DNA of 64,000 nucleotides from a virus: positions 1-64,000 of the IMG/VR virus record IMGVR_UViG_3300031369_000001; one strand, given 5' to 3'. The notes beneath the pieces are model-generated. The model was not told where the DNA came from, did no database searches, and worked only from the letters and a program-made list of their open reading frames with translations. Each line of letters starts with the position of its first letter. The stretch's first letter is position 1. This document shows, piece after piece, positions 13,956 through 59,157 of this stretch. Made by a program: the position numbers and the translations under genes.

Positions 13956-13960
13956 TGGAT

Positions 13961-14779: not shown

Positions 14780-14787
14780 ATAAAAAG

Positions 14788-36059: not shown

Positions 36060-37334
36060 ATGGAAAAGGCAGTTTGGTCAAATGCGCATATGAATGATTT
36101 GCCGGATAGTGCGTTTCTTTATATTGAATCAGGTGGAAAGAAAGATGAAAGTGGTAAAACGGTACCTCGTTCATTGCGTCATTTTCCTTATAGAGGAATG
36201 GATGGTAAAATTGATTTAGCACATGTAAGGAATGCAATTGCCCGCATTCCTCAATCTAAGTGTGGTTTATCGGAACAACAAAAAGTAGCCTTACAGAATA
36301 GGGCTCGTAAATTATTGGAAGGAAAAAAAGAAATGGAAAAAGCAATGTTTCATATTAATTTGCAAAAAGCTGGTCAAGTTTATTATGGGCCTAAAGGCGG
36401 AAAGTATCGAGATCCACAACATAAAATACCTTGGAGCGATAAAGAATTAAAGTATGGAATGACTAAAGAAGAAGGACATATTCAATCTAGTGTATACAAG
36501 ATACATAATACTGCTTCAGATACAGAAGCGTTAAAATTATTTAAAGAAATTACTGGTACATACGGAAATGATAAGATTAAAGAGGTTATTGCTAAACAGA
36601 ATATTCCTATAAGTTCTGGACTAAAAGATGCCTTAAATTCTTATCGTGGAAGAAAAGATTTTATTAATACTTTACAAAATCATATTAATTGGGTCAAGAA
36701 GTATGGGGCGAAAAGAGATAAAGAAGAATCTTCAAACGTTCATGGAAAAATACTTAAAAGTTTAAATGAAGAAATTGAAATCTTAGAGACTTTTTTAAAG
36801 TCTACAATTGAAGATAGTTCTTTACCTATTATTGGAAAAGGTAAGGAACAAGGAGATCAAACATTAGATGGTAAAGGGAAATCTTCTGGCACTCCTGGTA
36901 GTGGTAGTACTGCCCCTGATAGAGGGGTGACAAAACCATCTGTAAAAAAGTTATCTGAAGATGATGAAGTAGACGAGAAAAATATGAAAGATCATAAGAA
37001 GCCTATTGAGAACACTGCAAGGAAAAGCCTTAATCTTTCTACTCACGCACATGACTATATGGCTAGAGAGGTAGCGTTACGAAAGGCTCAATTGCTTAAA
37101 GAAGATTTGGTTTATATTGAACCAGATGAACCTATTCAAAAGTCTATTGAAAATAAAATAATGACCTCTGATGAAATGGCTGTTCTTTCTATGCAGGATG
37201 AATCTTTTTATAAAGCGCATTTACTGAATCGGCCTTTGTCTGGTATTTCTTTAAGTACTGTTAGCAAGTGTAGACATTGCAGTAATACTTTTAGTAAAGC
37301 AATAACAGTTTGTCCGAATTGTGGTCGTATGTAA
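36060..37334 (+). CDS. multi-segment putative head protein (DUF6582-like N-domain, GPKGG tag, C-terminal Zn ribbon)
   Basis: DLPDSAF...RHFP....D..HVRNAIAR; about ten K|[SA] sites; YYGPKGGKYRDPQHKIPW; directly upstream of portal. Confidence 0.65.
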   Translation: MEKAVWSNAHMNDLPDSAFLYIESGGKKDESGKTVPRSLRHFPYRGMDGKIDLAHVRNAIARIPQSKCGLSEQQKVALQNRARKLLEGKKEMEKAMFHINLQKAGQVYYGPKGGKYRDPQHKIPWSDKELKYGMTKEEGHIQSSVYKIHNTASDTEALKLFKEITGTYGNDKIKEVIAKQNIPISSGLKDALNSYRGRKDFINTLQNHINWVKKYGAKRDKEESSNVHGKILKSLNEEIEILETFLKSTIEDSSLPIIGKGKEQGDQTLDGKGKSSGTPGSGSTAPDRGVTKPSVKKLSEDDEVDEKNMKDHKKPIENTARKSLNLSTHAHDYMAREVALRKAQLLKEDLVYIEPDEPIQKSIENKIMTSDEMAVLSMQDESFYKAHLLNRPLSGISLSTVSKCRHCSNTFSKAITVCPNCGRM

Positions 37335-37351
37335 TATAAAGGATTTTGATT

Positions 37352-38944
37352 ATGGGCATTATTAGTACTTTTCAAGAAATGATGCCTATTGCTACGGATT
37401 TGATAAAAGCTAAACTTGAGCAGTCACGACAAGCAATCAATGTTCAAGCACAACAATTATCTAATCCAGCGCAAAAGGCAGATAATGATCCTAAGTCTAT
37501 TTTCTTTGATCCTTATTCCGTAGTAGAGCAATTTGGCTATAAGGATCGTCCTTCATCTATTACGTATGCTACTTTGTGGAATATCTTTTGTAAGCTTCCA
37601 ATTGTTCAAGCAATTGTATTTTTAAGAATGAATCAAGTAGCGGCTTTTGCTACTCCTCAACAAGATAAATTTTCATTAGGATTTCGAGTAGTATTAAAGG
37701 ATAAGGATAAGAATACTACTAAGCAAGAACAGAGATTCATTGCACAGATGAATAATGTTTTATTAAATACGGGAGTAACAAATAATTCTAGAGGCAGAGA
37801 CAGCTTTAAAACTTTTTTAAAGAAATTAGTATTTGATACCCTTATATATGACCAAATGTGTTTTGAAATAGTTCCTAATAGAAAAGGTCTCCCCGCCGAA
37901 TGGTATGCTACAGATGCAGCTACCATTAGAATTGCAGATAATGGGAATGTATTTAATGATGAAGACAAAACAAAAGAGATCAGATATGTACAGGTATATG
38001 ATGGGGTAGTGATTAACGAATATACCCAATATGAAATGGTATTTGGTGTAAGACACCCTAATACTAATATCAGGCTTCAAGGATATGGGGTAAGTGAATT
38101 AGAATTATTGGTGTCTACAATTACTTCCTTATTGTATGGCCATCAATACAATCAGAAGTTTTTTACACAAGGTTCTAGTGCCAAAGGTATTTTGAATTTT
38201 AAAGGAACAACTAATGCTAAGCAACTTGCTGAATTCAAAAGGCATTGGTACACTTTACTTTCTTCGGTTAATAACGCATGGAAAACTCCTATAACTAATA
38301 CCGAGGGTATCGAATGGGTTAATATGCAGCAGACACATAGGGATATGGAATTTTCTGCGTGGATGGATTTTCTTATTAAAGAAGCTTCTGCTGTATATGC
38401 AACTGATCCAGCAGAAATTAATTTTAATTACGGTAATACTGGTCAATCGAGAGCTTTAGTTGAAAGTTCTTCTGCTGAAAAAATTATAGAAAGTAAAGAG
38501 CGCGGACTACGTCCCTTATTAAATGACGTAGGGGAATTAATTGCCATTCATATAGTGGAACCTATTAACCCTGATTTTACTTTTGAGTTTATGGGGCTTG
38601 ATGCAGAAACAAAAGATAGTGTTGCTAAAAGAAATCAACAAAGAGTTCAAACCTATATTACGGTAAATGAATTAAGGGCTGAAGAAGATAGACCTCCATT
38701 GCCAGATGAACAAGGGGATATTATACTGAATCAGGTTTACATTCAGAACAAACAGCAAACACAAGCAATGCAGCAACAAGAAGAAGGTGATCAAAACGAA
38801 AACGGAATGACACAAGATGAAGAAGGTGATGATGGAAAACAAGATATAAGATCTTTATTATCTAAATATTCTGAGGATGATTTAGTTGATCAAAATGAAG
38901 ATGATGAAGTAAAGAAAAGTTTAGTATTGGATGTAGTTTTATAA
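37352..38944 (+). CDS. portal protein
   Basis: D...YDQ..FE.V, D..TI, GYG.SELE, N..FF.QG...GIL, DMEF..W, DP.EI.F, SK..GL.PLL, T.NE.R, GDII motifs as in SPO1/Twort-like portals. Confidence 0.9.
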   Translation: MGIISTFQEMMPIATDLIKAKLEQSRQAINVQAQQLSNPAQKADNDPKSIFFDPYSVVEQFGYKDRPSSITYATLWNIFCKLPIVQAIVFLRMNQVAAFATPQQDKFSLGFRVVLKDKDKNTTKQEQRFIAQMNNVLLNTGVTNNSRGRDSFKTFLKKLVFDTLIYDQMCFEIVPNRKGLPAEWYATDAATIRIADNGNVFNDEDKTKEIRYVQVYDGVVINEYTQYEMVFGVRHPNTNIRLQGYGVSELELLVSTITSLLYGHQYNQKFFTQGSSAKGILNFKGTTNAKQLAEFKRHWYTLLSSVNNAWKTPITNTEGIEWVNMQQTHRDMEFSAWMDFLIKEASAVYATDPAEINFNYGNTGQSRALVESSSAEKIIESKERGLRPLLNDVGELIAIHIVEPINPDFTFEFMGLDAETKDSVAKRNQQRVQTYITVNELRAEEDRPPLPDEQGDIILNQVYIQNKQQTQAMQQQEEGDQNENGMTQDEEGDDGKQDIRSLLSKYSEDDLVDQNEDDEVKKSLVLDVVL

Positions 38945-38959
38945 AATAAGGAAATTGAG

Positions 38960-39169
38960 ATGAGTATTGATAAAAAATTTGTTGACCGTTATGCAGACGC
39001 TTTATCTAGGCTACATATTTCTGTTGAGGTAATTAGTTACTATGAGTCTTTGTTAAAAGATGCTAATCAATTAATTTATGAAGCGTCTAAACATACTACG
39101 AATGATTCTTTTTATAATAGGTGTCTTAGTTGGGAAGAAGGTTACCATAATAGGAGGGATAATGTCTAA
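38960..39169 (+). CDS. hypothetical protein
   Basis: AAGGA RBS. Confidence 0.55.
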   Translation: MSIDKKFVDRYADALSRLHISVEVISYYESLLKDANQLIYEASKHTTNDSFYNRCLSWEEGYHNRRDNV

Positions 39170-39347
39170 GATAAAACATATTTGTCGTAATTGTGCCTTT
39201 ATGCGAAGAAGCGCTAAACCTAAAACTATTTATAAATGTAGAATTAAAATTATGCATGGCATACTTCCATCGGTTGTTAAACCATCAAATGAATGTGACG
39301 TAGAGAATGGTTTTCAGCCGTTGCGGATCTTAAATAAGGATAAATAA
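39162..39347 (+). CDS. small Cys-containing protein
   Basis: AGGAGG RBS before MSKIKHICRNC. Confidence 0.55.
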   Translation: MSKIKHICRNCAFMRRSAKPKTIYKCRIKIMHGILPSVVKPSNECDVENGFQPLRILNKDK

Positions 39348-39349
39348 TT

Positions 39350-39730
39350 ATGAAATTGGAACATATAGTGAATGCTAGAATTATAAAAGAATCAGATTTA
39401 AGTGATTTATATTTTGGTTTAAGTAATGACTTAGCTAAGATTACTGTTTCTGAATATGATAAATATTGTTCTGGTACTATTAATATTGATATAGGAGGAA
39501 CAGAAGCTCTTTCTTTTGGGGATATTGATACAGTCAAAGGTATTTTATTAGTAGTTAACAATGATTGCGAATTAACTGTAAATAGCAGTAATGTTCCTAT
39601 TTCATTGATACGTCATACGGATACTACTTACCCAAAAGCTAGTTTTTTCATGAACGCTTTAATTAGTGATTTTAGCATTAAGGCATTAACTGTAGCTTTA
39701 TCTGGTTTTTATTGTGCTTGGGGGGAATAA
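39350..39730 (+). CDS. hypothetical, probable virion beta-sandwich protein
   Basis: Composition and position near portal. Confidence 0.55.
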   Translation: MKLEHIVNARIIKESDLSDLYFGLSNDLAKITVSEYDKYCSGTINIDIGGTEALSFGDIDTVKGILLVVNNDCELTVNSSNVPISLIRHTDTTYPKASFFMNALISDFSIKALTVALSGFYCAWGE

Positions 39731-40201
39731 ATGGCTAGGAAAGATGAGATTGAGAGTATAGAAAAAGTATTACAACTTTATACTCAACAAATGGATAGCC
39801 AAATTACTAGGTTCAATGAAATTGTGATTGAGCAATCGATTCAAATTGGAAAGCAATCTGTTAATTTTGAAAGACTAGAGCGGACTGTAGCGCAAGAAGT
39901 ACTTCCAGTGATTAAAGAGCTTCCTGGATTGATAGAGCACGGCATTAGATTAGCCCAAGATACTTGTCCATTGTATAAAGCTTGGGATAGGAAAGAAAAA
40001 GAATCAGTAGGAGATAAATTGGGTTCTTTATTTGATTCTAAACCACCAAATAAAAAGAAATTTACAATATCTACTAATCTTAAAATTAGATTAATTGAAG
40101 CGCTTATTCTTTTACTTCTATCCCTTGCGGCATGGTTTGGTATAAGTAGTTACAATGAACCTTTTTCAGTTGCTGATAAAGCAGTAACAACCCATAAGTA
40201 A
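39731..40201 (+). CDS. coiled-coil membrane protein (possible holin-like/lysis accessory)
   Basis: N-terminal coiled coil, one C-terminal hydrophobic helix. Confidence 0.5.
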   Translation: MARKDEIESIEKVLQLYTQQMDSQITRFNEIVIEQSIQIGKQSVNFERLERTVAQEVLPVIKELPGLIEHGIRLAQDTCPLYKAWDRKEKESVGDKLGSLFDSKPPNKKKFTISTNLKIRLIEALILLLLSLAAWFGISSYNEPFSVADKAVTTHK

Positions 40202-40202
40202 A

Positions 40203-43200
40203 ATGCACATACAAATAGAAGCAAAGAAGGAAGAACTTTTTTCCAAAAGAGTTTCTTTAGTAAAGTCTATCGCTGATTGCATTGGAGAAGTAGATTCTGA
40301 TTTAAAAAATCGTTTAATAAAAGCGATAGACAATAAAGACAAATTGTTTACTGATCCAGTTTTACTAGAAGTATTGAAGCAATGGGAAATAGGTTATAAA
40401 GACCAAACCAATGCGATGCTTGTTGATATAAGTAAAGTATTGGATAAGGGAAAATTAAATAAGAGTCTTAGTTCTGATCCTTCTTGGATTGGTGTTGATT
40501 TAGATAGGACGTTAGCTGAATATCATGAATATAAAGGCCCTGCTTCTATCGGTAAGCCAATTCCTAGAATGGTTGATAGGGTTAAGGAATGGATTGCTAA
40601 TAATAAAAATGTAAAAATTATGACCGCTAGGGCAAATCCAAATTCTAGCGATTTTAGAGCATCTATTACTGCTATAAAGAAATGGTGCAAAAAATATATT
40701 GGAGAAGAATTACCGGTAGTATACGAAAAAGATCTGCATATGGTTGAACTTTGGGATGACCGAGCTATTCAGATTAAACCTAATACGGGTATTAGGGCAG
40801 ATGGATTAAATAAAAGTGAAGATGAAGGTATTTCATATTTTCATTACGATATAGATACAGATTCCTATATTGAAGACTATAATGAATATTTAAATAAAGC
40901 ACAAAAAGGTCCATTCATTGGTCCACGTGGAGGTAAATGGGCTGATCCAGAACACACCATACCTTGGAAAGAAGAAGTACACAGCTACTCAGAAACTAAA
41001 GACCGATATAGTGATGAAGAAGCTGAACAAATTTTAGATAGAATAGGCGAGGCTTTATATAGTCATCAAGCAATTAATCCTCGTGAAAAAGATGATACTG
41101 GATTTAGTTATGTGGATATGGACAGATGGAGATCTGTAACTGGTGTAAATGCAAAGAGACAATTACTTCAAAAATATAAACGCCAAATAGTCGGTGCTTA
41201 TAGTATTGAAGAATATCATAAATTAGGATTAGCAGATGTAAGAGAAGGTAAGGGATATAAAGCGAACATTAAACCTTATTATAATAAAACTTGGGGAAGC
41301 CTCACCCTTCCGGTAGATGGAAGGGTTGATAGAGATACCTTTAATAAATTTAGAGAGATTAATAGAAAACATAATGTGTGGTTTAGTAATGGCGATAACT
41401 TTATTAAAGAACAATATTTAGATGATTTTGATTTTGAATCTTATAAGAAGGATATGGGGGAAATAGGCATAAAAGTTCACCCAATTAAGGGGGAACGAAA
41501 ACAAAATGTATCTGAAAAAGACGAAAAGGATCTTACTGTAGATGAAGCTTTGCAAAGCATTAAAAATAGAAGGATTAAGGATGCAATTGTTCTTAAGAAA
41601 ATAGGTAAAGATAAATTTGCTTTTTGGTCTACCTATTCTCCAGAATTTAATGATTTGTTTTCTAATAAAACTGGTGGATTGTCCGGTATTTTTTACGCAA
41701 ATAAAGATAATAATTGGGCTAGAGAAACGCATGAATTGAATCTAGTAGAAGAAGCTTTACAACAGATAAAGAAGCAATTGCCTAATTATAAGTTGTATAT
41801 AGATGAAGAAGGTTTGAAAGAAGCACAAAATGAAAAAGCGAGATATCAAGCTGAATTACAAAAGCCAATTCCTGAAGTACAGAAATTATTAGATAGTAAA
41901 TATTCATTATTTCCTTATCAAAATGAAGCAGTGCATTTTTTAGATAAAACAAATGGAAATGCCTTAATTGGGGATTCCATGGGACTTGGAAAAACGCTTG
42001 AAACTTTGGCTTGGTTGGCTAAAGGAAATAAGAAAACAATTTTAGTTGTTCCGAAAGTAGTAAGGCGTACTTGGTTACAAGAAGCAGATAAGTTTTTTCC
42101 AGGGCAGTTTAAAGGAACTGAATTAGTGTCTTCTGATATAAGAAATAATAGAGTTCCAAATTTTAAAGATAAGAACCTTGTAACTGTTAATTATGAATCT
42201 TTAGATAAGTTTTATCCTTATTTAAAGGATGCTGGTTTTGATACAGTAGTAGTTGATGAATCACATAGGATGAAGAATCCTAAAGCTAAACAGACAAAAG
42301 CGATTCAAAAGGTATCGGCATTAGTAAATCATCATATTTTATTGTCTGGAACAGCGGTTAAAAATAAAAAAGAAGAGTTGTTTACCCAGTTAGAAGTTGT
42401 TGCGCCAGGTAAATTTACATCTAAAAATCAAATAAAATTTGCTACTATTGGCGGACTTTGGCGCGATATGAAGGATTTCTATATTGCGAGGAGTAAGGAA
42501 GAAGTTCTAAAAGATTTACCTGAAAAAGTCACTTCTATTATTCAACAAGACATACCTAATTTACCTGATTATGGTGCAAATAAAGATATTGGGGATATTG
42601 CTAAAATTAAAGCTTCTGTAGCAATTGGAAAAGTTCCTGCTACTATTGATTTGGCTAAAGAGATACTAGGTTCTTCTGATTCAAAGATAATTGTGTTTAC
42701 TGATTCAGTTGAGGCAGCTAAAAAGATTCATGAAGAATTAGGTGATATTTCTTTATTGCACCATGGGCAAATGAGCGATGATAAAAGGGAAGCGGTAAAG
42801 GAAGAATTTCAAAAAACAGATGGTAATGGTGATTTCATTTCTCCTAAACGGGTATTCGTAACTACTCGTCAGTCAATGGCTGTAGGAGCTACTTTAACCG
42901 CTGCTGATAAAGTCATTTTTAATGACTTACCTTGGACTGCTGCTGATTTACGACAAGCAGAGGATAGAGCACATAGAATTGGGCAAAAGAACAACGTAAA
43001 TGTTTATTGGGTCACTGCTTCGAATAATTTATTTGATTCTTCAGTTACGGAGATAATTAAAAGGAAATATGAATTATCTAAAAAAGTAAATCAGGGAAAG
43101 AAGCTGACGCAAGAAGAAATTGCATGGATGAATAAGCCGTTAACGGTTAGTGATATATTGAATAAAATACATGGAGGTAAAACGCCTATAGAAGAAGAAA

Positions 43201-45011
43201 AACAATTGCTGATTAAAGAAAATAAACCTGAAGTTCCTGTTATTCCGATAGAAGTACCTAAACAAGAAGAAGAGCAGAAGCCTAAATTTATTATGCAAGA
43301 ACCTGTAAAAGTTAAAGAATCTAAAGATATAATAGATATAAAAAAAGATATTAAAGAAACACAAAATAAGATTGATAAATTAAGAGATAGACAATTAAAA
43401 GATTGGCAATCTGGATCTATAACTCGTAAAAGGACAACTACATATAATGCTGAAATAAGTCGACATAATGATAGGATACAAGAATTAAAAAAGCTTTTAA
43501 ACAAATATGAAGAAAATATTAGTGTAATACAAGAAAAAGAACCTGTAAAAGTTGAAACACAAGAACCTGTTAAAAAGAAACGTGGAAGGCCTCTTGGTTC
43601 TAAAAACATTAAAAGAGTTGCTATTCCTCCAATGGTTATCCAAGAACCTGAAAAAAAGAAAAGAGGGAGACCTCCTGGTTCTAAAAACAAAATGACTCGA
43701 GTTGCTATTAAAGAAGTAACACCTCCTACATTTAAACGAGAAGCTATAAAAGAGGAACCTGTTAAACAAGGTAGGGGAAGGCCACCAAAGCCACAAAGTG
43801 TAAAAGAAGCGGAATCTAGTTTAGCTTACGTTTCTGCTAAGAATATAAAACTTAAAAAAGTTGCTTCTGATGACGTTCACGATGTCTATCAAACTAATTT
43901 TTCTATAGACGTAGATGACGCCAAAATAGCTATGAATAATTTACGTGAGCAAGGTATCAATGCAACGGTGCTAGAAGGAGATCCAGGAATAGTTAAAATA
44001 AGAAAAGGTTTTATAATTAGTGAATCTGATTTATATAAAGCCTTATTCATAGGACCTAAAGGTGGTAAATGGGCAAATGCTGAACATACCATACCTTATC
44101 AAGAAGATATAGTTCGAAAACCTGTTAAGCGAGAACCACCTGGTTCACAGTTAGCAATTGACGTACAAAATAAATTAAAAGAATTGAAAGTAGACAAATT
44201 ACCTCAATCTACTATTCCAATTTCAGACATTAGAATTGATTTAACAGGTAATGTTGATACAAAAGCAATCATTACTTGGAAAGATACTAAAGGAAAAGTC
44301 CAAAGTGGTTATACTCCAAAATTCCATGAAATAAATGCTAAGGAAAAATGGGATAGAATTAATAAATTTAGAAGTAAGAAAAAAGAAATTGTAAATACAT
44401 TAAATGAAAAATTGATTAAGGGGAAACCCGGTAGTATTGACCACCAAGGTTATACTATATTAGCCATTATTGCAGAAACAGGATTACGTCCAGGTAGTAC
44501 TGAAAGTGTTAGAAAGCATGGTCATTACGGTATAAGTACTTTAAAAAAGGATCACATTGCTTTAAATAATAAAATGGCTGTTTTAAATTTTATTGGCAAA
44601 GAAGGAAAGAAGAATGTTACAGTGATTCAAAATCCTGTTACGTTAAAAGCTTTAGAGTATTACGTAAGCAATGCTACCGAAAATGGTAGTATATTTAATT
44701 CCAATGCTTTGGATACTGGTAAAACCATACTTCCTAAAGGAATGAAGGTGAAAGACCTTAGAACAATTAAGGCCACCGAATCAGCGGAAAGATTATTAAA
44801 AGAAGTTGACACTCCTCCTCCATTAACCGGAGATAGTAAAAAGGATAAACGATTATTAGCAAAGGCATTGTTGGAAACAAGTAAAAAAGTGGCTACAATA
44901 TTGAATAATACTCCTAGTATTGCAAAGGCTAGTTATATCCATCCAATGGTATTTGAACAATGGGCAAAAAGTGTAGGAGCATCTGAAAAACTTTGGAAAG
45001 AGGTAGGTTAA
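40203..45011 (+). CDS. polyvalent protein: HAD phosphatase + SNF2/SWI2 ATPase + 3 AT-hooks + type IB topoisomerase
   Basis: HAD WIGVDLDRTL...TAR...K...WDDRA. SNF2 LFPYQ, MGLGKT, DESH, LSGT, G.TLT.A, QAEDRAHRIGQ. AT-hooks RGRP x3. TopIB GLRPG, YG..TL, F.GK.G, KDLRT, NTP..A..SYIHP. Confidence 0.9.
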   Translation: MHIQIEAKKEELFSKRVSLVKSIADCIGEVDSDLKNRLIKAIDNKDKLFTDPVLLEVLKQWEIGYKDQTNAMLVDISKVLDKGKLNKSLSSDPSWIGVDLDRTLAEYHEYKGPASIGKPIPRMVDRVKEWIANNKNVKIMTARANPNSSDFRASITAIKKWCKKYIGEELPVVYEKDLHMVELWDDRAIQIKPNTGIRADGLNKSEDEGISYFHYDIDTDSYIEDYNEYLNKAQKGPFIGPRGGKWADPEHTIPWKEEVHSYSETKDRYSDEEAEQILDRIGEALYSHQAINPREKDDTGFSYVDMDRWRSVTGVNAKRQLLQKYKRQIVGAYSIEEYHKLGLADVREGKGYKANIKPYYNKTWGSLTLPVDGRVDRDTFNKFREINRKHNVWFSNGDNFIKEQYLDDFDFESYKKDMGEIGIKVHPIKGERKQNVSEKDEKDLTVDEALQSIKNRRIKDAIVLKKIGKDKFAFWSTYSPEFNDLFSNKTGGLSGIFYANKDNNWARETHELNLVEEALQQIKKQLPNYKLYIDEEGLKEAQNEKARYQAELQKPIPEVQKLLDSKYSLFPYQNEAVHFLDKTNGNALIGDSMGLGKTLETLAWLAKGNKKTILVVPKVVRRTWLQEADKFFPGQFKGTELVSSDIRNNRVPNFKDKNLVTVNYESLDKFYPYLKDAGFDTVVVDESHRMKNPKAKQTKAIQKVSALVNHHILLSGTAVKNKKEELFTQLEVVAPGKFTSKNQIKFATIGGLWRDMKDFYIARSKEEVLKDLPEKVTSIIQQDIPNLPDYGANKDIGDIAKIKASVAIGKVPATIDLAKEILGSSDSKIIVFTDSVEAAKKIHEELGDISLLHHGQMSDDKREAVKEEFQKTDGNGDFISPKRVFVTTRQSMAVGATLTAADKVIFNDLPWTAADLRQAEDRAHRIGQKNNVNVYWVTASNNLFDSSVTEIIKRKYELSKKVNQGKKLTQEEIAWMNKPLTVSDILNKIHGGKTPIEEEKQLLIKENKPEVPVIPIEVPKQEEEQKPKFIMQEPVKVKESKDIIDIKKDIKETQNKIDKLRDRQLKDWQSGSITRKRTTTYNAEISRHNDRIQELKKLLNKYEENISVIQEKEPVKVETQEPVKKKRGRPLGSKNIKRVAIPPMVIQEPEKKKRGRPPGSKNKMTRVAIKEVTPPTFKREAIKEEPVKQGRGRPPKPQSVKEAESSLAYVSAKNIKLKKVASDDVHDVYQTNFSIDVDDAKIAMNNLREQGINATVLEGDPGIVKIRKGFIISESDLYKALFIGPKGGKWANAEHTIPYQEDIVRKPVKREPPGSQLAIDVQNKLKELKVDKLPQSTIPISDIRIDLTGNVDTKAIITWKDTKGKVQSGYTPKFHEINAKEKWDRINKFRSKKKEIVNTLNEKLIKGKPGSIDHQGYTILAIIAETGLRPGSTESVRKHGHYGISTLKKDHIALNNKMAVLNFIGKEGKKNVTVIQNPVTLKALEYYVSNATENGSIFNSNALDTGKTILPKGMKVKDLRTIKATESAERLLKEVDTPPPLTGDSKKDKRLLAKALLETSKKVATILNNTPSIAKASYIHPMVFEQWAKSVGASEKLWKEVG
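40914..40979 (+). repeat. tag repeat A, copy 1 (FIGPRGGKWADPEHTIPWKEEV)
   Basis: 63/66 identical to 49529-49594. Confidence 0.95.
44032..44104 (+). repeat. tag repeat B, copy 1 (YKALFIGPKGGKWANAEHTIPYQ)
   Basis: 73/73 identical to 48465-48537. Confidence 0.95.
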
Positions 45012-45229
45012 TGCAAGAAAGACGAAATGTAAGAGTTATTGGTAGTAAATTACTACGTATACCCGATGGGTTTATTTCTTGGGAAGAACATTTAAAGGTA
45101 TGGGAAGCATACCATAAGAAATGGAATAATATTCAGTCGGCGGAAAGGATTGCGGAAAGAGGGGGATTTTACATGGATGAAGTTATTGAACTACTTGGAG
45201 AACAACCTAAGACATGGAGAGCACGGTAA
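45011..45229 (+). CDS. hypothetical protein (QSAERIAERGGF family pattern)
   Basis: GAGG RBS, TAATG coupling. Confidence 0.65.
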   Translation: MQERRNVRVIGSKLLRIPDGFISWEEHLKVWEAYHKKWNNIQSAERIAERGGFYMDEVIELLGEQPKTWRAR

Positions 45230-45362
45230 TGGAAAAAGAATTTAATAAAGAAATGAATGAAGATATTGATGATGATGGAGAATTAGACGTTGAGTGGTAT
45301 CCTATACCGGAAGGATTAAAAGAAGCTTGGAATGAGATTATTTTAGAGGAAGGTGGGGCGAA

Positions 45363-45590
45363 ATGAGTATAAGGGTGAGTGGTATTTTAGAGATTAATTG
45401 GTCAGTTGAATTGCCGGAAGGGAAAGAACATAGCGGGGTTATTTCAGATGATCCAGTTATTGAAGCCGTTTTAGATTTTATTCCGCAGACAGGTTCTATT
45501 TATTTATGGGGAGAAGATGAGAAACCAGTTGATGTGTTTTTAGAAGTTCATGAAGAAGACATGGAAATAGAAGAAGATGAAAGAGGTTAG
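45363..45590 (+). CDS. acidic hypothetical protein
   Basis: RBS; operon position. Confidence 0.55.
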   Translation: MSIRVSGILEINWSVELPEGKEHSGVISDDPVIEAVLDFIPQTGSIYLWGEDEKPVDVFLEVHEEDMEIEEDERG

Positions 45591-45592
45591 TT

Positions 45593-46582
45593 ATGCGTGA
45601 AAAAGTATTGTGTATTTATCATAATGCGGATTTAGATGGCATTTGTTCAGCAGCTATAGTTTACGATTATTTTAATTGCCAGGGTGATGTTATCGATGGA
45701 AATGTTATTCTATATGGAATGAATTACGGAGATGATTTTCCTTGGTCATTTATAGACAAAGATGAAATGACTGAAGAAGATAAAGAAGATTGTGTTCCTT
45801 ATGACAAGGTAGTAATGGTTGATTTTTCTTTATCTAAAGAAGATATGAAAAGATTAAATAATTTAGTTGATTTAATTTGGATAGATCATCATGTGAGTGT
45901 AATTGCCGACAACAAAGATATTCAAGGTGTGCGCGATATAAATTACGCTGCATGTGAATTAACCTATATGTATTTTCATACAGGAATTACTTATATTGAT
46001 GGAGTACTTGCTTTACCATTAGATGGGGATATGCCAAAAGCTGTTAGATTATTAGGACGTTATGATGTATGGGATCATAGTGATAAAGAAGTAGTACCTT
46101 TTCAATATGGAATGAAATTATACGATATAGGGCCTTGTAATTCTGAATGGAAGGATTTGTTAGATAATTCAGTGATTTCTGATAGTATAATTAAACAAGT
46201 AATTCATAATGGTGAAATAATTGAAAAATACCAAAGTAATTTGAACTATAAATATGTAAATGCATATGGCTTTGTTGCTGTTTTAGAATTTGAAGATGAA
46301 TTGTATAATGTACTGTGTGTAAATAAAGGTTTTAGTAATTCATCTATTGTTAAGGATAGTGCATTATATAACAAATCTATTATTGATTTAATAATGGTTT
46401 TTGTAAGGCATGAGGAGTCTTACAAAGTTTCTTTATATACCGAAAAAGAAATAGATGTATCACAGATAGCAAAAGCTTTTGGGGGTGGAGGACATAAAAA
46501 GGCTGCTGGGTTTATTTGTAGTGGCTTAGAATTTGAAGATTTTAATGGAAATTTGATTATTGACATAGATCCCAATGAATAG
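45593..46582 (+). CDS. DHH/DHHA1-family phosphoesterase (NrnB-like)
   Basis: YHNADLDG..SA, VDFS, IDHH, YD.W, GGGGHKKAAGF. Confidence 0.9.
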   Translation: MREKVLCIYHNADLDGICSAAIVYDYFNCQGDVIDGNVILYGMNYGDDFPWSFIDKDEMTEEDKEDCVPYDKVVMVDFSLSKEDMKRLNNLVDLIWIDHHVSVIADNKDIQGVRDINYAACELTYMYFHTGITYIDGVLALPLDGDMPKAVRLLGRYDVWDHSDKEVVPFQYGMKLYDIGPCNSEWKDLLDNSVISDSIIKQVIHNGEIIEKYQSNLNYKYVNAYGFVAVLEFEDELYNVLCVNKGFSNSSIVKDSALYNKSIIDLIMVFVRHEESYKVSLYTEKEIDVSQIAKAFGGGGHKKAAGFICSGLEFEDFNGNLIIDIDPNE

Positions 46583-47132
46583 AATTCCTATACAGCGATG
46601 GACTGAATTACGAATGCAATATGCATTAACTAGGAAAAATAATCTTTTTGACTTTGGAAGATATGCAGTTGTTCCGAATATTGGTTGGGGGTTAGGACTT
46701 AATCACGAACCTGATTTATTGTGTTTATCTAAAACTGGGATATTTCATGAAGTAGAGATTAAAGTAACTATGGCTGATTTGAAAACAGATAAAGATAAGT
46801 GGCATAATCATTATTCTAGATTTGTTAAACACCTATGGTTTGCTATTCCAGACATTTTATCTATAGATAAGGTTTTAAGCGAAATTCCTGATTATGCTGG
46901 ATTAGTTCAAGTGAGTACTTATTACAATGAATATCCATATAATCAAAAATATTCAAGACAAAAGTATTTAACTCATATAATTAGAAAACCTAGACCAAAA
47001 TTACGAAAAGGGTTGTTTACCGACCCTAAACAAGACACTATTATAAAATTTTTAAGGATTGGAGTTTTGCGAATGTGGACAGATACCTATAGGTTTAAAC
47101 ATTTTGACCGACAAGTAATATTAAAGGGGTGA
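46575..47132 (+). CDS. MmcB-like PD-(D/E)XK nuclease-family protein
   Basis: EPDLL....G...EVEIK....DL..D..K...WFA.P......IP..AGL. Confidence 0.7.
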   Translation: MNRIPIQRWTELRMQYALTRKNNLFDFGRYAVVPNIGWGLGLNHEPDLLCLSKTGIFHEVEIKVTMADLKTDKDKWHNHYSRFVKHLWFAIPDILSIDKVLSEIPDYAGLVQVSTYYNEYPYNQKYSRQKYLTHIIRKPRPKLRKGLFTDPKQDTIIKFLRIGVLRMWTDTYRFKHFDRQVILKG

Positions 47133-50100
47133 TTATTATGCCGTTAACTCCTGATCAAATATTAGAAATCCAAGATATAATTGAATTACATCATAATGCA
47201 TTTATAGCTAATACAATTGGTCATGATGCGTTACCTGATGAAGTAATTGATGAATTACGAGATAAAGGATTATTGAATAAAGAATCTAAAGACCTTATTA
47301 AGAAGATATATGAATACGGTCAAGTGCTTGGTAAATTGAATAGTCCCCAAGCTTCACAGATGTCCTATAATAGATTTGAAGATTATATTCAAAAAAATCC
47401 ACAACCGTTAACGCAAATGCAACAACGAGCTGTTCGTATGGCCCAAGTGAATGCCGGTCAGTATTGTATGGGATTAGGAAATATAATTGAAAAAGATACG
47501 GGAAGAACTTTAATAGAAGCAGATCAAAGATTTAGAATTGCATATGAGGATAAAATAAAAAATCTTACTGCTTTAAATGCTGCAAGAAGAGAGAGTATTG
47601 AAAAGCTTAGAAGTGATTTAGGTTGGTCTACAGGGGATTGGGCTAGGGATATGAAACGAATTGCTGTAACTGAAATAATGTATTCAACGCAGCAAGGACA
47701 AGCGGATTACCTTAGAAAGAAATATGGAGAAGATGTTTTTGTTGCACGTATTCCTAATCCAGGGGCGTGTAAGCATTGTATTCGTTTACATATTGGTCCA
47801 GATGGGCAGCCTAGAATATTTAAATTATCTACTTTAGAGGAACATGGTAGTAACGTAGGACGAAAACAAAATGATTGGCAAGCTGTAGTTGGCCCAGTTC
47901 ATCCTAATTGTGTATGCAACATGATTAGTGTTCCAAAGGGATGGGGATTCAATGAAGAAGGAGACTTGCTTCCAGGAGGTAAGTTAGGGGAAATATATTA
48001 TGAACCAGAAGAATTAGAAAGGGCTTTAATTGAAGAAAATCTTTTTTATAAATCTTTAAAGGCTAAGGTTAATATAGTTTTCCAAGGAATTCCTATTGTT
48101 ATTGAAACTCCAAAAGGAGATAAGCGAAAATGGATTAATGGAGATGGTTCGATAGGGGAAACCATTATGCAGGAAGCTTCTTATGGATTCGTAAAAAATA
48201 CTACTTCTATGGATGAAGAAGAATTAGATGTATTCGTTGGACCATTTAAAGATTCACCTGTAGTTTATATAATTGATCAAAAGAATCCGGATAATGAACT
48301 ATATGATGAACAGAAATGTATGCTTGGTTTTCGAAATGAAGAACATGCATTAAATGTATATAGAATGAATTACGATAATCCAGATAAATTTATTTATGAC
48401 TGTAGTTCGATGGATATAGAAGCCTTTAAGAGATGGTGTGGGATAGGTATTATTCGAGAAGAAATATATAAAGCCTTATTCATAGGACCTAAAGGTGGTA
48501 AATGGGCAAATGCTGAACATACCATACCTTATCAAGATCCTAGTTTAGCAATGAGAAATAAAGCTAGTAATTTTTATGATGGATTGATTAGTTGGGTAAA
48601 GGATAATAAAGATAATTTACAATTTGATTCAAATGGAAATGTTTATATACAGGCAAATCAATTTACAAATGATAAAAATTTATCGCATTTACATATACTG
48701 ATTACTCCTAAAGGAGTTTTTAGAGGCAATGGTATTGGTAAAACTAGTGATGGGAAAGATGTATTAGTGTTAACTAATTTAAGAAATCCATATGATACTA
48801 CTTATTTAGACACTAGAATAACTAGTAGAGTTATTATACACGAAATATCTCATTATCTTAATGCTGGATACGATAAAGTTCATAATATAGTAACTGAGCA
48901 TGGTAAAGAATATTATAATCAATCTGTCGAATTTGATGCATTTTGGAATGAAGGTGCTGGGGAATTGGAAAGATTTATTCGTAATTTTAAAGACACAAAT
49001 CAACATCATATATTTGAAAGGATAGTAGGAAATTCTCCTGATTTTAAGTACTTTAATAGTAAAGTAAAATCTTTTTGGGATAAAACCTTTTTGAATAGTT
49101 TAACAGAAGCTAATAAGAAAAAATTTGATAAAAGATTATATAGATTATGGGATGATTTAAAAAGCAATATCTATAAATCTAATTACGATTTATCCCCTGG
49201 TCCAGGTTCTGGATTGAATTTCTTTTTAGGTACTAATGTAAATAAACCGAATAGTGGAGGAACTATTCGATATAAAGAAGTATTGGAATTAGGTAAAGAG
49301 GAATTAGAAAAACGTAAAAAGCAAAAAGGTAATAAAGGTATTTACGGGGATATAGAGGATTATCAATTTGGCGAAAACATTATACCGGTTAAAGAATTGA
49401 TAATTCCTGAGACCGTAAAAGAGTCTAAGAAAGAAGCACGGAAGAAAAATAAGGATGTGAATAAATTTGTACTTACTAGAAGATTAAAATGGAAAAAAGG
49501 AAATGTAAATAATTTAAATAAATCATTGTTCATTGGTCCACGTGGAGGTAAATGGGCTGATTCAGAACATACTATACCTTGGAAAGAAGAAGTATCAACA
49601 AATGGTAAATTTGTTGATACTAACGATAGTGCTTTAAGTAACGTATTGGCGGAATTGTTGGGAAAAAATATTCATTTAGAAAAAGTTAGGGAAACAGATA
49701 AAGAGTTGTTTTATAGAGGGGGTAAGGAGTTACTTATTGGTGCTAAGAAGCTAATTAATGCTTTAAAAAATAAAGGATTTAAGGTAGAAATAATTCCGCA
49801 AGGAAAGAACCTTCCTATAGTTGTTTTGAATAAGCCAATAAAAAAAGAACCAATAAAGAAAGAACCAATAAAGAAAGAACCAATAAAGAAAGAACCAATA
49901 AAGAAAGAACCAATAAAGCTATCCAGTGATGAAGTTATAAAACAAGATAAAGTTTTAAAGGATAAAAAGATTTTTAACAAATTAAGTAGTGATTATGTTA
50001 ATAGGATTAATAATATTTACAAAGTATTAAAAGACGATAAAGATTTTAAATACTTTGTAAAATCTATTGGTCATACTAATGTAAAAGATACTATTGAATA

Positions 50101-50683
50101 CTTAATTAATAAATGGAATGAGACAGGAAGTGACCATGATATACATTTAATTATTTTACAAAAAGCTGCGATGGATGAGTTTGGATTGGATAGTGGGACG
50201 ATTAAACATTTTGATAAGAAGTTATTAAATAAGGTACATAAAATACCTAAAACTGTTATGGGGGCAAGAAAATTTATAAGAGCGCAGTATAGTCTTACAC
50301 AAGAATATCTAAAAAAACAGGGGATATCGGAAATTATTCTGTTTAGAGGAATGCAACTTAAAAAGATTAAAAGTGATGGTAGGTCTAAAGAGATTGAAGT
50401 TACTTCCCAACCTCTATCTTCTTGGTCTACTTCTTTTTCAGAGGCTAAAGATTTTTCTGTAAGGGGGGCAGTTGGTAGTTCTTCTTTTTCTAGTGTTTTA
50501 TTGTCTAAAAAAGTTCCTATAGAACAAATATTTTCTATACCAAAGGTTGGTATAGGTGAAAGTGATGAACAAGAATGCGTTTTACTTGGAAATAAGAAAG
50601 ATCCTGAAAAAGTGATTTCTTTAGCTGCTGATTATCATTATATGTATAATATTAATGTAAAACAATTATATGGAGAAAAGTAA
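47129..50683 (+). CDS. MuF (head morphogenesis) polyvalent protein: MuF + InPase-like + zincin + C-terminal ADP-ribosyltransferase
   Basis: MuF RIA.TE, ACKHC, PVHPNCVC. InPase IETPKG..R, YG, D.EELDVFVG, DQ, DEQK..LGF. Zincin HEISH..Y....E..A. ART LFRG, PLSSWSTS..A..F, EQE.V. Confidence 0.85.
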   Translation: MIIMPLTPDQILEIQDIIELHHNAFIANTIGHDALPDEVIDELRDKGLLNKESKDLIKKIYEYGQVLGKLNSPQASQMSYNRFEDYIQKNPQPLTQMQQRAVRMAQVNAGQYCMGLGNIIEKDTGRTLIEADQRFRIAYEDKIKNLTALNAARRESIEKLRSDLGWSTGDWARDMKRIAVTEIMYSTQQGQADYLRKKYGEDVFVARIPNPGACKHCIRLHIGPDGQPRIFKLSTLEEHGSNVGRKQNDWQAVVGPVHPNCVCNMISVPKGWGFNEEGDLLPGGKLGEIYYEPEELERALIEENLFYKSLKAKVNIVFQGIPIVIETPKGDKRKWINGDGSIGETIMQEASYGFVKNTTSMDEEELDVFVGPFKDSPVVYIIDQKNPDNELYDEQKCMLGFRNEEHALNVYRMNYDNPDKFIYDCSSMDIEAFKRWCGIGIIREEIYKALFIGPKGGKWANAEHTIPYQDPSLAMRNKASNFYDGLISWVKDNKDNLQFDSNGNVYIQANQFTNDKNLSHLHILITPKGVFRGNGIGKTSDGKDVLVLTNLRNPYDTTYLDTRITSRVIIHEISHYLNAGYDKVHNIVTEHGKEYYNQSVEFDAFWNEGAGELERFIRNFKDTNQHHIFERIVGNSPDFKYFNSKVKSFWDKTFLNSLTEANKKKFDKRLYRLWDDLKSNIYKSNYDLSPGPGSGLNFFLGTNVNKPNSGGTIRYKEVLELGKEELEKRKKQKGNKGIYGDIEDYQFGENIIPVKELIIPETVKESKKEARKKNKDVNKFVLTRRLKWKKGNVNNLNKSLFIGPRGGKWADSEHTIPWKEEVSTNGKFVDTNDSALSNVLAELLGKNIHLEKVRETDKELFYRGGKELLIGAKKLINALKNKGFKVEIIPQGKNLPIVVLNKPIKKEPIKKEPIKKEPIKKEPIKKEPIKLSSDEVIKQDKVLKDKKIFNKLSSDYVNRINNIYKVLKDDKDFKYFVKSIGHTNVKDTIEYLINKWNETGSDHDIHLIILQKAAMDEFGLDSGTIKHFDKKLLNKVHKIPKTVMGARKFIRAQYSLTQEYLKKQGISEIILFRGMQLKKIKSDGRSKEIEVTSQPLSSWSTSFSEAKDFSVRGAVGSSSFSSVLLSKKVPIEQIFSIPKVGIGESDEQECVLLGNKKDPEKVISLAADYHYMYNINVKQLYGEK
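48465..48537 (+). repeat. tag repeat B, copy 2
   Basis: 73/73 identical to 44032-44104. Confidence 0.95.
49529..49594 (+). repeat. tag repeat A, copy 2
   Basis: 63/66 identical to 40914-40979. Confidence 0.95.
49835..49918 (+). repeat. 15-bp tandem repeat CCAATAAAGAAAGAA x5.6 (PIKKE)
   Basis: Read directly; linker before the ART domain. Confidence 0.95.
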
Positions 50684-57530: not shown

Positions 57531-58322
57531 ATGCCTCAAGAAATTCCTACAAATGATTTTAGACTTTCTGTAGGAGAAGCTTCTTTTTTTACAAAAGCTT
57601 CAGCTCCCGAAGGACAACAACGTCGAATAGGTGGTGTTGTTTCTACAGAAACTCCGGATAGACAAGAAGAAACTCTTATTCAAAATGGTTTAGATTTTTC
57701 TGAATTTGTAAAATATGGTTGGTTTAATGACAACCATTCTAATCCTAAAGTGAGTCATACCTGTAATTTAGTAGGGTATCCTGAGTTAACTGAACGTTTT
57801 CAAAAAGGTGATAGGTTGCCTGATGGAAAAATTGCAAAAGCAGATTGTCATTGGGCAGAGGGGTATTTGTTAGAAGGTTATTCACCTGCTGATGAATTGT
57901 GGAATCTTGCCTGTGCCTTAAATAAGACCCCCCGTAGATTGGGTTTTTCAGTTGAAGGTAAAATTCAACGAAGAGATCCATTAAATAAGTCTACTGTTAC
58001 AAAGGCAATTGTTAGAGAAGTAGCAATTACAAAAGCCCCTGTTAATACAGATACACAATTAAATATATTAGCAAAGGCTCTTTCTATGGGTACTTCTATT
58101 CCAGGCAATTCTGTCGATGGAGATAAAACCGGGGAAAATGCTGGGCAAGTTCTTGCTCAGGAATCCTTAGAGAAGAAAAAGAAAAAGAATTTAAAAAAAG
58201 GTTTAACGGATAGTCAAGCGTTTGCTTGGTTATCTAATCATTTACCCAATATATCCCCTGAATTAAAAGGGAGAATAATCTCGTTGACTCGGGATTTAAA
58301 ATTGCAAAATAAATTGCATTAA
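57531..58322 (+). CDS. prohead (maturation) protease
   Basis: IGG..ST...D.Q.E....GLD...F...G.FNDNH, LGFSVEG, VAIT..PVN..T; SPO1/Twort-like; two genes before the MCP. Confidence 0.88.
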   Translation: MPQEIPTNDFRLSVGEASFFTKASAPEGQQRRIGGVVSTETPDRQEETLIQNGLDFSEFVKYGWFNDNHSNPKVSHTCNLVGYPELTERFQKGDRLPDGKIAKADCHWAEGYLLEGYSPADELWNLACALNKTPRRLGFSVEGKIQRRDPLNKSTVTKAIVREVAITKAPVNTDTQLNILAKALSMGTSIPGNSVDGDKTGENAGQVLAQESLEKKKKKNLKKGLTDSQAFAWLSNHLPNISPELKGRIISLTRDLKLQNKLH

Positions 58323-58338: not shown

Positions 58339-59157
58339 ATGAAAAGACAGCCAATGCAAAATGATGATGAGATGAAGAACAAGAAAGATCAGATGGATGA
58401 GGATAACGAAGATTCTCAAATGGAAGAAGAAGAAAAGTCTTGCGGTACTAAGAAATCACAAGACCTAACCGAAGATGACCTCAGTAAAGCTGTTGAGGTA
58501 TTAAATGATTATGTCAATACGACTGATCCAAATTCTCGAAAAGAGACTTTATTGAAAAAAGCAATGACTGATGATCTTTCTTCTGAAGAGATGAATGAAC
58601 TATTTAAATCTTTAAGTGGTTCTGAAAATTCAAATACGGAAGAAGTTAATGATTTTTCTGATTCTGTTCTTAATTCATTAGAATCTGATACTATTCAGAA
58701 ATCATTAGATGTTTCTGATTATTTAACAGAATTGCATAGTGGATTAGTTAAATCGCTTAGTACGTTAGAAGGAGAATTAAATAGTAATGCTATGCGTCAG
58801 CATACATTTAATATTACTCTTGCTAAGAGCATGGTTTCTGTTGTTACTGGGTTACAGCGTACAATGAATGTTATTTCTGAATTAAAAAAATCTATGGACA
58901 ATTATAGTGAAGCCCCTATTAGAAAGCCAACATCTGTTCAACCTTTAAACAAAGCTTTTGTTGGACACAATGGGCAAGAAGGGCAGTCTTTAAAGAAATC
59001 TGAAATGATGGGACAATTACTCTATCTTGCAGAGCAAGGAGTTGATAACATTGGGGGAGTTAGTGTAAATCATGCGGTTGCTTTACTGGAAAGTAGCAAT
59101 CAATTACCTAATCAAGTTGTTAGTGCTTTAAAAGCTAGACAAGGAGCTACTGCTTAA
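58339..59157 (+). CDS. scaffold-like head assembly protein
   Basis: Acidic/helical, between protease and MCP, about 12 K|[SA] sites. Confidence 0.7.
   Translation: MKRQPMQNDDEMKNKKDQMDEDNEDSQMEEEEKSCGTKKSQDLTEDDLSKAVEVLNDYVNTTDPNSRKETLLKKAMTDDLSSEEMNELFKSLSGSENSNTEEVNDFSDSVLNSLESDTIQKSLDVSDYLTELHSGLVKSLSTLEGELNSNAMRQHTFNITLAKSMVSVVTGLQRTMNVISELKKSMDNYSEAPIRKPTSVQPLNKAFVGHNGQEGQSLKKSEMMGQLLYLAEQGVDNIGGVSVNHAVALLESSNQLPNQVVSALKARQGATA

Follow-up and report, generated by a model that had tools for sequence, protein, structure and literature searches.

The window examined here is a stretch of 64,000 nucleotides from the 102.6-kb record of an uncultured phage (~103 kb). It contains, on the plus strand, a set of head genes and three genes whose products share five copies of a short sequence tag. 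The first of these three genes (ORF 36060, 36060..37334, +) encodes a head-associated protein and lies directly upstream of the portal protein gene (37346..38944, +; phrog_12, E = 6e-55). The other two encode polyvalent proteins: ORF 40203 (40203..45011, +), of 1602 aa, and ORF 47129 (47129..50683, +), of 1184 aa. Further downstream are the genes for the head-maturation protease (57531..58322, +), a scaffolding protein of 272 aa (58339..59157, +), and a major capsid protein of the SPO1 type (59216..60646, +) with ~36% identity to SPO1 gp6.1.

The conserved unit of ~25 to 30 residues (~20 to 25 for the tag) consists of h-x-K-[A/S/G], 0 to 4 small residues, and the core [F/Y]IGP[R/K]GGKWA[D/N]xxHTIP[W/Y]. 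In a six-frame translation of the window, the string GP[RK]GG occurs exactly five times (nt 36387, 40920, 44052, 48485, and 49535), always on the plus strand and always within a tag. A profile of the five copies, searched against the whole 102.6-kb record, finds the same five only (E = 8.5e-26 to 6.3e-23). ORF 36060 has a single, diverged copy (36366..36434, +; K103|AGQV-YYGPKGGKYRDPQHKIPW, the bar marking the predicted cut). ORF 40203 has two, at the heads of its SNF2-containing module (40896..40967, +; K232|AQKGP-FIGPRGGKWADPEHTIPW) and its TopIB module (44037..44099, +; K1279|AL-FIGPKGGKWANAEHTIPY). ORF 47129 also has two, at the heads of a putative zincin (HEISH) module (48470..48532, +; K448|AL-FIGPKGGKWANAEHTIPY) and a probable ART module (49520..49582, +; K798|SL-FIGPRGGKWADSEHTIPW). 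Each [F/Y][I/Y]GP core is preceded at 2 to 5 residues by K-[A/S]. The copies fall into two subtypes, A (SNF2 and ART) and B (TopIB and zincin). A 73-nt stretch of DNA is identical between the TopIB and zincin copies and is the longest exact repeat within the genome. The SNF2 and ART copies are identical over a run of 33 nt and at 51 of 57 core bases, and their flanks are unrelated. Five copies in three proteins, each with K|[SA] a few residues ahead of it, had been described in an earlier note on this DNA, and both observations hold. The same note placed one copy directly before SNF2; that copy does head the module, but the ATPase core lies ~300 residues further downstream.

The three carrier proteins are modular. 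ORF 36060 comprises an N-terminal domain of ~90 aa, known elsewhere as a fusion partner of prohead proteases, the tag, a helical or disordered middle region, and a C-terminal zinc-ribbon domain that also occurs at the C termini of other tagged proteins; an AlphaFold model of the protein, made with 16 homologues, is of low confidence (pLDDT 47). In ORF 40203, an N-terminal leader and a HAD-like module precede tag A, which is followed by a region of unknown nature, the SNF2 ATPase, three AT-hooks, tag B, and a type IB topoisomerase; SNF2 (with Helicase_C) and TopIB are confirmed by Pfam. ORF 47129 begins with a MuF-like head domain and an InPase (PF18823, E = 3.8e-30), followed by tag B, the HEISH zincin-like module, a Lys-rich spacer, tag A, PIKKE repeats, and the probable ART. 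The MuF-like assignment is a weak match (phrog_115, E = 6.8e-4), and in relatives, homologues are encoded between the portal and protease genes. We consider the ART module probable from its R/S/ExE motifs and its language-model neighbors (DRAT and other ART families, score 0.91), and the zincin module putative from the HEISH motif and weak leads; neither matched a PHROGs family. The predicted HAD and InPase modules are flanked by h-x-K|S sites and have no tag, so not every module requires one.

The tag recurs widely, within limits. Among 1.84 billion representatives, 806 protein clusters match it at E <= 1e-3, and 595 do so at E <= 1e-10. A single protein has as many as five copies. Counts given below out of 150 tagged proteins refer to the best 150 of the 806 clusters. 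In IMG/VR, 130 stretches carry the tag, and the sources among the matches listed are all uncultured phages. In metagenome-assembled genomes (MAGs), it was found at only 7 loci, in MAGs of four phyla. Searches by tblastn of 50,697 cultured phage records and of 72,556 plasmids gave nothing beyond chance hits (E >= 2 in both), and a word-indexed protein search with the tag region returned 8 close relatives and no others. A homologue of this phage's SPO1-type capsid protein is present in 13 of the 15 tag-bearing virus records tested, at 32 to 59% identity. The tag-bearing clade comprises uncultured phages of ~80 to 113 kb with SPO1-type heads. A second tag type, a motif of ORF 36060 homologues searched for as a regular expression, was found neither in this genome nor in the best 150 tagged proteins.

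The company that the tag keeps points to a known class of cargo proteins. Pfam places InPase in 17 of 37 tagged relatives, along with LPD1, ART-PolyVal, RelA_SpoT, Zeta toxin, DarA_C, and SAM lyase, and a MuF-like N terminus occurs in 18 of the best 150 tagged proteins. These signature domains support placing the carriers among the polyvalent head-cargo proteins of phages. For phage-type polyvalent proteins, packaging, processing, and injection have been predicted (Iyer, Burroughs, Anand, de Souza, and Aravind 2017, PMC5512222); for the proteins described here, the observation that would bear on packaging and delivery is their genomic context beside the portal gene. As in those polyvalent proteins, ORF 40203 and ORF 47129 each combine domains of disparate biochemical activity. 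Like them and the MuF-fused effectors described in the same work, the tagged proteins as a group are large, lie near head genes, and join domains such as MuF-like, InPase, ART, SNF2, zincin, RelA/SpoT, and DarA. The profile search and tally of fused domains that the earlier note had proposed thus list InPase, LPD1, ART-PolyVal, RelA_SpoT, and DarA_C among the carriers, and its description of a portable tag with unrelated cargo applies both to the modules headed here and to those in ~800 protein clusters elsewhere.

The step that precedes the tag is probably a cleavage site of the phage's own head protease. In this phage, [LIVMF]xK[SA] is overrepresented in the scaffold (9 h-x-K-[S/A] sites, p = 1.4e-6), in the protease (p = 6e-4; 6 h-x-K|[S/A/G] sites, including a conserved ILAK|AL near the C-terminal part), and in ORF 36060 (9 sites, p = 4.5e-5). 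Five further phages that bear the tag show a like enrichment in their scaffolds (p = 2e-4 to 7e-8), and the motif is near zero in their tail genes. In SPO1, the 244-aa scaffold has 11 such sites and the capsid protein has LNK23|AL; the LNK|AL step at the N-terminal propeptide boundary of the capsid protein is conserved and appears here as DLNK30|AL. Because the motif is enriched in scaffold and protease and marks the capsid propeptide boundary in this phage, five relatives, and SPO1, the head-maturation protease is the probable enzyme cutting at h-x-K|[S/A/G]; a literature search found no paper stating the cut site of SPO1-like head proteases. All five tags are preceded by this type of site, and K-[AGS] lies within 12 residues upstream of 327 of 345 tags (95%), with a sharp peak at positions -7 to -5 over a background of 1 to 3% per position. 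The link between tag and Lys step is thereby upheld, and the comparative motif data tie the step to the head protease. Gene boundaries, too, coincide with K| sites: ORF 36060 starts with MEK|AVW, its relatives have LQK|AVW at the same point behind an additional upstream module, and the gene of one relative opens with MNKAQ[K/T]GPFIGPRGG.

So close a coupling might also mean that the tag serves only to let the processing protease (the head protease or the carried zincin) recognize or dock on its substrate, which would ensure cuts at module boundaries, and that it has no role after cleavage. The 95% association extends to gene N termini, where merely 3 to 10 residues would be removed, and zincin peptidases have been proposed as the processors of polyvalent proteins (Iyer et al. 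2017, PMC5512222). However, the site occurs without the tag in the scaffold, the capsid protein, the protease itself, and at the HAD and InPase boundaries. The spacing from Lys to core varies from 2 to 6 residues of Gly-rich filler, which fits poorly with a single rigid recognition element, and Pfam tallies of tagged proteins (111 modules; 37 whole proteins) include no zincin peptidase family. We regard a recognition element as improbable. The evidence here favors the head-maturation protease over zincin peptidases; for this lineage at least, the enzyme proposed to process polyvalent proteins would then be the head protease instead of the zincins that they carry.

The tag is without a match in the domain libraries and literature searched. 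When the five tags of the window and a set of 118 diverse tags were compared with Pfam at E <= 10, nothing relevant matched, the LPD domains derived from the polyvalent-protein paper included; NCBIfam gave YacG only, below threshold (E = 0.04 to 0.17); and the tag profile matched only chance lectin repeats among PDB chains. AlphaFold models the tag as a small hairpin with moderate confidence (mean pLDDT 69.5, core about 84), for which Foldseek found no structural analogue. Full-text literature searches for strings of the GPRGG or GPRGGKW type found no phage paper, and the text of the polyvalent-protein paper (PMC5512222) does not mention the motif. The earlier note saw a resemblance to the PBCV-specific basic adaptor domain (PF08789), by which the tag would be a basic DNA-binding adaptor. 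A shared GPRGG-like string is the one feature in favor; PF08789 matched none of the five window tags and none of the 118 diverse tags at E <= 10, the charge of the core is roughly neutral, and the sequence that follows the tag in this phage is acidic or mixed. The resemblance does not survive these comparisons, and we consider membership of that family extremely improbable. Plain DNA binding by the tag is rejected, since the core is not basic, as is self-cleavage at the His-Thr step, since Lys replaces this Thr in 21% of tags.

Could the tag instead act in the host after injection, binding a universally conserved target and so placing all effectors at one site? Several features would suit such a role: conservation is higher in the tag than in the capsid protein, and the tagged phages differ widely in GC content and occur in MAGs of four phyla. 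The one concrete candidate would be DNA gyrase subunit B, with the tag occupying its TOPRIM pocket as YacG does. When the core G-K-W-A-x5-I-P is aligned to E. coli YacG 38-GEWAAEEKRIP-48, the distance from Trp to Ile is equal in both; the YacG residues that dock on GyrB are Trp40 and Ile47 (PMC4083091), and no TOPRIM or GyrB gene was found in this phage. Against this, the similarity is not significant by hhalign (probability 3.8%, P = 0.011) or in the NCBIfam search given above, and YacG is missing from the PDB chains matched by the tag profile at E <= 10. InPase or RelA/SpoT cargo has no evident need for gyrase. The restriction of the tag to one head lineage, together with its absence from plasmid-borne polyvalent proteins, makes a phage-encoded partner more likely. 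We thus judge a host target to be unlikely.

The position of the tag within proteins is regular. In 47 of the best 150 proteins, the first tag is found no more than 25 residues from the N terminus; successive tags are a median of 281 aa apart, and no tags occur near C termini, the distance to the protein end having a 10th percentile of 210 aa. Tags always stand at module heads. Of the end points of internal homology, 39% map to the interval from -10 to +30 residues around a tag, against 8% by chance, and close relatives have gained or lost cassettes at tags, with individual swaps identified. Because homology between relatives breaks at the tags, cargo has been exchanged there, and these comparisons establish the tag as a junction for the swapping of cargo cassettes between genes and between phages. 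A comparable element is VENN in CdiA, a conserved short junction motif where polymorphic-toxin cassettes are exchanged. CdiA belongs to the secreted bacterial toxins and carries one C-terminal cassette, whereas here several cassettes occur per protein and the context is the phage head.

It might be supposed that the tag is mainly a conserved linker, a recombination junction for cassette shuffling with no specific binding function. The breakpoints concentrated at tags, the gain and loss of cassettes there among close relatives, and the 73-nt and 33-nt exact repeats between the tags of different genes all agree with this. Yet the same residues are retained in genomes of 30% and of 55 to 67% GC, where the DNA cannot be alike, so selection acts on the protein. 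Some 10 positions, including two Trp, a His, and an Asp, are 85 to 100% invariant, far beyond the needs of a linker or recombination site. Part of this conservation could stem from common ancestry and gene conversion, since the tag occurs in a single head lineage. A mere linker nevertheless seems to us a poor candidate.

We favor a reading in which the tag is a portable unit that heads a cargo module, follows a head-protease cut, remains on the cargo as a docking element, and serves as a cassette junction; we would give this four-part reading as a whole about an even chance of being right. On strong comparative evidence, the head-maturation protease would cut at the Lys|small-residue step, and if so, the polyproteins would be split into modules within the procapsid. 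By the geometry of the site, the tag would then become the new N terminus of every freed module, joined to its enzyme by a flexible linker. As a short protein-docking peptide, it might bind a conserved head component, and docked cargo might stay in the head while scaffold fragments exit, be aligned for exit with the DNA, or both, the tag acting akin to a cargo-loading or retention peptide. To this is added the exchange of cassettes between genes and phages observed at the tag. Overall, the tag probably marks cargo that is freed in the capsid and delivered with the DNA. A more specific proposal, which we hold only tentatively, is that the protease-exposed N terminus binds a conserved site in the interior of the HK97-fold capsid and would alone suffice for head retention and delivery of arbitrary proteins.

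Such a peptide would have parallels elsewhere. The cargo-loading peptide of encapsulins is short and conserved, is joined by a flexible linker, and targets unrelated enzymes into an HK97-fold shell. Encapsulin peptides are usually C-terminal, involve no protease step, and do not lead to delivery into another cell; the sequences are unrelated, and the tag would be N-terminal after a predicted protease step. The capsid-targeting sequence of T4, found on internal proteins and cut by the gp21 prohead protease, is likewise a short, portable peptide beside a prohead-protease site (review, PMC9958956); the T4 proteins are packed in the head and injected, as is predicted for the tagged cargo. The T4 signal has ~10 residues, lies upstream of the cut, is removed, and can be transferred to other proteins (PMC9958956). 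In contrast, the tag core lies 2 to 6 residues downstream of K-[AGS] in 95% of tags and would remain attached to the cargo. Tags are also found at internal positions, with several in one polyprotein, and show no sequence similarity to the T4 signal; the likeness is conceptual only. In the giant phages SPN3US and phiKZ, a single head protease that recognizes a simple motif processes many head proteins, ejected ones among them, and the released propeptides are expected to exit the head (PMC10052503). Those systems differ in that the motif is A-X-E rather than h-x-K, N-terminal propeptides are cut from separate proteins, and no common tag is reported on the mature N termini (PMC10052503).

The rules by which phages choose the proteins that are carried in the capsid and enter the host are understood for very few models, such as the T4 targeting sequence and P1 Dar. 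The tag offers a rule that is defined by sequence, a head-protease site followed by a tag of ~20 residues, with ~800 recurrences in uncultured phages. It marks swappable enzymes of anti-defense and host takeover, among them SNF2, TopIB, ART, Zeta toxin, RelA/SpoT, SAM lyase, and InPase. If the tag is indeed a loading or retention signal, the repertoire of injected effectors of these phages would be readable from sequence, the survival of cargo in the head during clearance of scaffold fragments would be explained, and a compact handle for putting proteins into capsids would be available. Should the tag alone suffice, evolution or an experimenter could load any enzyme by the addition of ~25 residues.

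The ~25-residue tag (core [F/Y]IGP[R/K]GGKWA..HTIP[W/Y]) that the earlier note described as shared by three proteins of this uncultured, nearly complete IMG/VR phage (GC ~30%) is real. Five copies are seen in translated ORFs 36060-37334, 40203-45011, and 47129-50683 (all + strand), GP[RK]GG occurs together with H-x-IP[WY] in only five places in a six-frame scan of the window, and a profile of the five copies found no sixth tag in the whole 102.6-kb virus record. Subtype A copies start the SNF2 and ART modules, share an exact 33-nt run, and are identical at 51 of 57 core bases. Subtype B copies start the TopIB and zincin modules and share an exact repeat of 73 nt, longer than any other internal exact repeat in the genome. 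Within each pair, the flanking sequences are unrelated. The ORF 36060 copy is diverged (YYGPKGGKYRDPQHKIPW).

The tag is widespread in metagenomic sequence. Degenerate patterns confirmed 130 tag stretches at 75 IMG/VR loci, and a profile-based reanalysis counted 168 domain hits across 115 ORFs. A profile of 118 nonredundant tags, run against 1.84 billion representative proteins, matched 806 proteins at E<=1e-3 (595 at E<=1e-10), each with at most five copies and mostly 600 to 2,600 residues long; ten of the best matches come only from metagenomic sources, and none of the ten has a functional name. The tag is absent from 50,697 cultured phage records and 72,556 plasmids, and a search of 185,579 prokaryote species (one genome each) located it at just seven loci, each of them in a MAG. 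No matching entry was found in Pfam, NCBIfam, or PDB, and a literature search for tag strings found none in a phage context. The resemblance to the PBCV basic adaptor domain suggested in the earlier note does not hold, as no Pfam entry matches the tag.

Among 345 tags from the 150 best of the 806 matching proteins, the core is G-P-[Y/F]-I-G-P-[R/K]-G-G-K-W-A-D-[P/A]-x-H-[T/K]-I-P-W, with ~10 positions 85-100% conserved, followed by a variable Lys/Ala/Gly-rich stretch. From the 118-sequence alignment, AlphaFold models a small hairpin (FI, turn PRGG, KW) at moderate confidence (mean pLDDT 69.5; core ~84); Foldseek found no structural analogue of it. G-K-W-A-x5-I-P aligns with equal spacing to YacG residues 38-48, which include the gyrase B subunit docking residues Trp40 and Ile47; the match is subthreshold and not statistically significant, and we treat it as a weak lead, an idea only. 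An example of this stretch lies at window 40932-40964.

Two of the carriers, ORF 40203 and ORF 47129, are phage-type polyvalent proteins as defined by Iyer et al. 2017 (PMC5512222). The former contains a HAD-like module, SNF2/Helicase_C, three AT-hooks, and a type IB topoisomerase. The AT-hook-like repeats (KKKRGRP.GSKN twice and QGRGRPPKP; residues ~1000-1120, window 43200-43560) sit between the SNF2 and TopIB parts and suggest DNA tethering of that module. ORF 47129 contains a MuF-like N terminus (a weak PHROG match, with homologues located between portal and protease in relatives), an InPase (PF18823), an HEISH module, and probably an ADP-ribosyltransferase (ART). Between tag A and this probable ART, a 15-nt unit repeated six times in tandem (window 49844-49933) encodes PIKKE repeats. 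The head module comprises the portal (37346-38944), head maturation protease (57531-58322), scaffold (58339-59157), and major capsid protein (59216-60646), the last ~36% identical to capsid proteins of SPO1 and other Herelleviridae. A phage-encoded RNA polymerase sigma factor (55792-56577; phrog_351, E 7e-27) lies ~950 bases upstream of the protease gene. Elsewhere, there is a GC-rich island of ~2.4 kb (13400-15800; 45-59% GC versus ~30% for the genome), in which the ORFs on either strand are all short and overlapping and neither a tRNA nor an Rfam family reaching the gathering score was found. The record ends (window 1-281; record 102317-102614) have exact repeats of 126 and 127 nt in common, with 21-nt tandem units at the right end; these are probably direct terminal repeats of a complete genome, though the source label is "linear".

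The motif [LIVMF]-x-K-[S/A], a predicted cleavage step, occurs genome-wide at 0.38 per 100 residues and is far more frequent in the scaffold (9 sites in 272 aa; p=1.4e-6), the protease (6 in 263 aa; p=6e-4), and ORF 36060 (9 in 424 aa; p=4.5e-5). The capsid protein has a 30-residue leader, then DLNK30|AL. In the head module of each of five further phages that carry the tag (GC 55-67%), the protein between protease and capsid protein had 7-16 sites (p=2e-4 to 7e-8), and their tail genes had almost none. The capsid LNK|AL boundary and a protease ILAK|S[L] site are conserved. SPO1, too, has LNK23|AL in gp6.1, and its scaffold of 244 residues contains 11 sites. Because scaffold and protease enrichment and the capsid boundary recur here, in the five relatives, and in SPO1, Lys|small residue is very probably the specificity of this head protease family, for which the literature searched held no report of an experimentally determined cut site.

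The proposed coupling of the tag to this site is well supported: Lys-Ala or Lys-Ser lies upstream of all five window tags, and 327 of the 345 tags (95%) have a Lys-[Ala/Gly/Ser] pair in the 12 residues before them, most often with Lys at -7 to -5 (background, 1-3% per position). Of the 150 best proteins, 47 have their first tag no more than 25 residues from the N terminus; median tag-to-tag spacing is 281 residues, and the last tag is never near the C terminus (median distance, 380 residues). The tag is always at the head of something. That it is purely a processing signal seems unlikely to us. The presence of a Lys step with each tag, even at gene N termini, suggests that the exact new N terminus matters, and the occurrence of several tags per polyprotein argues that the tag is needed after cleavage, because one anchor suffices before it. 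Lys-site motifs also bound modules that have no tag, namely HAD (K87 and K204 of ORF 40203) and InPase (K308 and K448 of ORF 47129). Separately, the head regions of three relatives (L096, L097, and L098) have ORFs of 2,267-2,685 residues, two to three small ORFs upstream of the protease gene, with 13-18 h-x-K-[SAG] sites and no GPRGG tag by regex; these may be tagless cargo polyproteins of the same lineage.

Comparison of relatives shows that cassettes are gained and lost at Lys sites. In three MuF-InPase proteins, the alignment with ORF 47129 extends only as far as the end of tag B (residue 470-472), beyond which they diverge; K308 is the insertion point of an additional tag-headed module in one relative, and another relative amounts to ORF 40203 minus the SNF2 module. 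Coupling of the tag to cassette boundaries is well supported, with 39% of internal homology endpoints in the 150 best proteins falling -10 to +30 residues from a tag (8% at random) and 35% of start points near one (11% at random). The cargo downstream is unrelated between copies, as first noticed from the sequence; the domains identified in tagged proteins include InPase, SNF2, TopIB, Zeta toxin, ART-PolyVal, RelA_SpoT, DarA_C, SAM lyase, PRTase, GNAT, DSP phosphatase, LPD1, and DUF6582, and most modules have no Pfam match. We consider it very unlikely that the tag is a mere recombination joint.

Gene boundaries in relatives, too, coincide with predicted Lys sites. ORF 36060 starts MEK|AVW, where five homologues have LQK|AVW, or in one case MQK|AYW, behind an extra upstream module; a close relative's homologue starts MNKAQTGPFIGPRGG, a string found internally in ORF 40203. 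The N-terminal ~90 residues of ORF 36060 (window 36060-36330; DLPDSAF...RHFPY...HVRNAIARIPQS) form a domain that starts hundreds of proteins at 60-72% identity and is fused to prohead proteases (Pfam families PF14550, PF10123, and PF04586) and to capsid-protein, methylase, and 2'-5' RNA ligase domains, making it a candidate general head-targeting domain. At least 12 further tagged proteins have the C-terminal domain of ORF 36060 at their own C termini. Roughly half of the aligned ORF 36060 homologues (columns 620-660) carry a different motif in the tag slot, [R/T]GGKY-x3-4-PK-x-GGGY-x-Y-x-Y, directly behind the same EKAM...K site, and one homologue combines the two motifs, which suggests a second tag family interchangeable with the first. 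Like the tag, this alternative motif has no match to the PBCV adaptor.

A capsid-protein homologue (32-59% identity) is present in 13 of 15 tested tag-bearing virus records, the other two being fragments (~40% complete), and the tag core is more conserved than the capsid protein. This pattern suggests a phage-encoded partner, most simply a head component; a peptide directed at a host target is improbable. We infer entry, cutting, and tag-mediated retention as the most likely reading, which reaches beyond sequence statistics. The polyproteins would enter the procapsid via a head-binding part (the MuF-like domain or head-associated domains of ORF 36060) and be cut at Lys sites by the head protease, each freed enzyme retaining the tag as its new N terminus. 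As a rule, propeptides are expected to exit the head once cleaved, and scaffold fragments likewise (PMC10052503). The tag would be a docking peptide that keeps freed cargo in the head as fragments exit, a plausible function that would account for the cargo staying there. The tag is a new and apparently undescribed component of a type of system that is itself known, that of phage proteins packaged in the head, processed, and injected.
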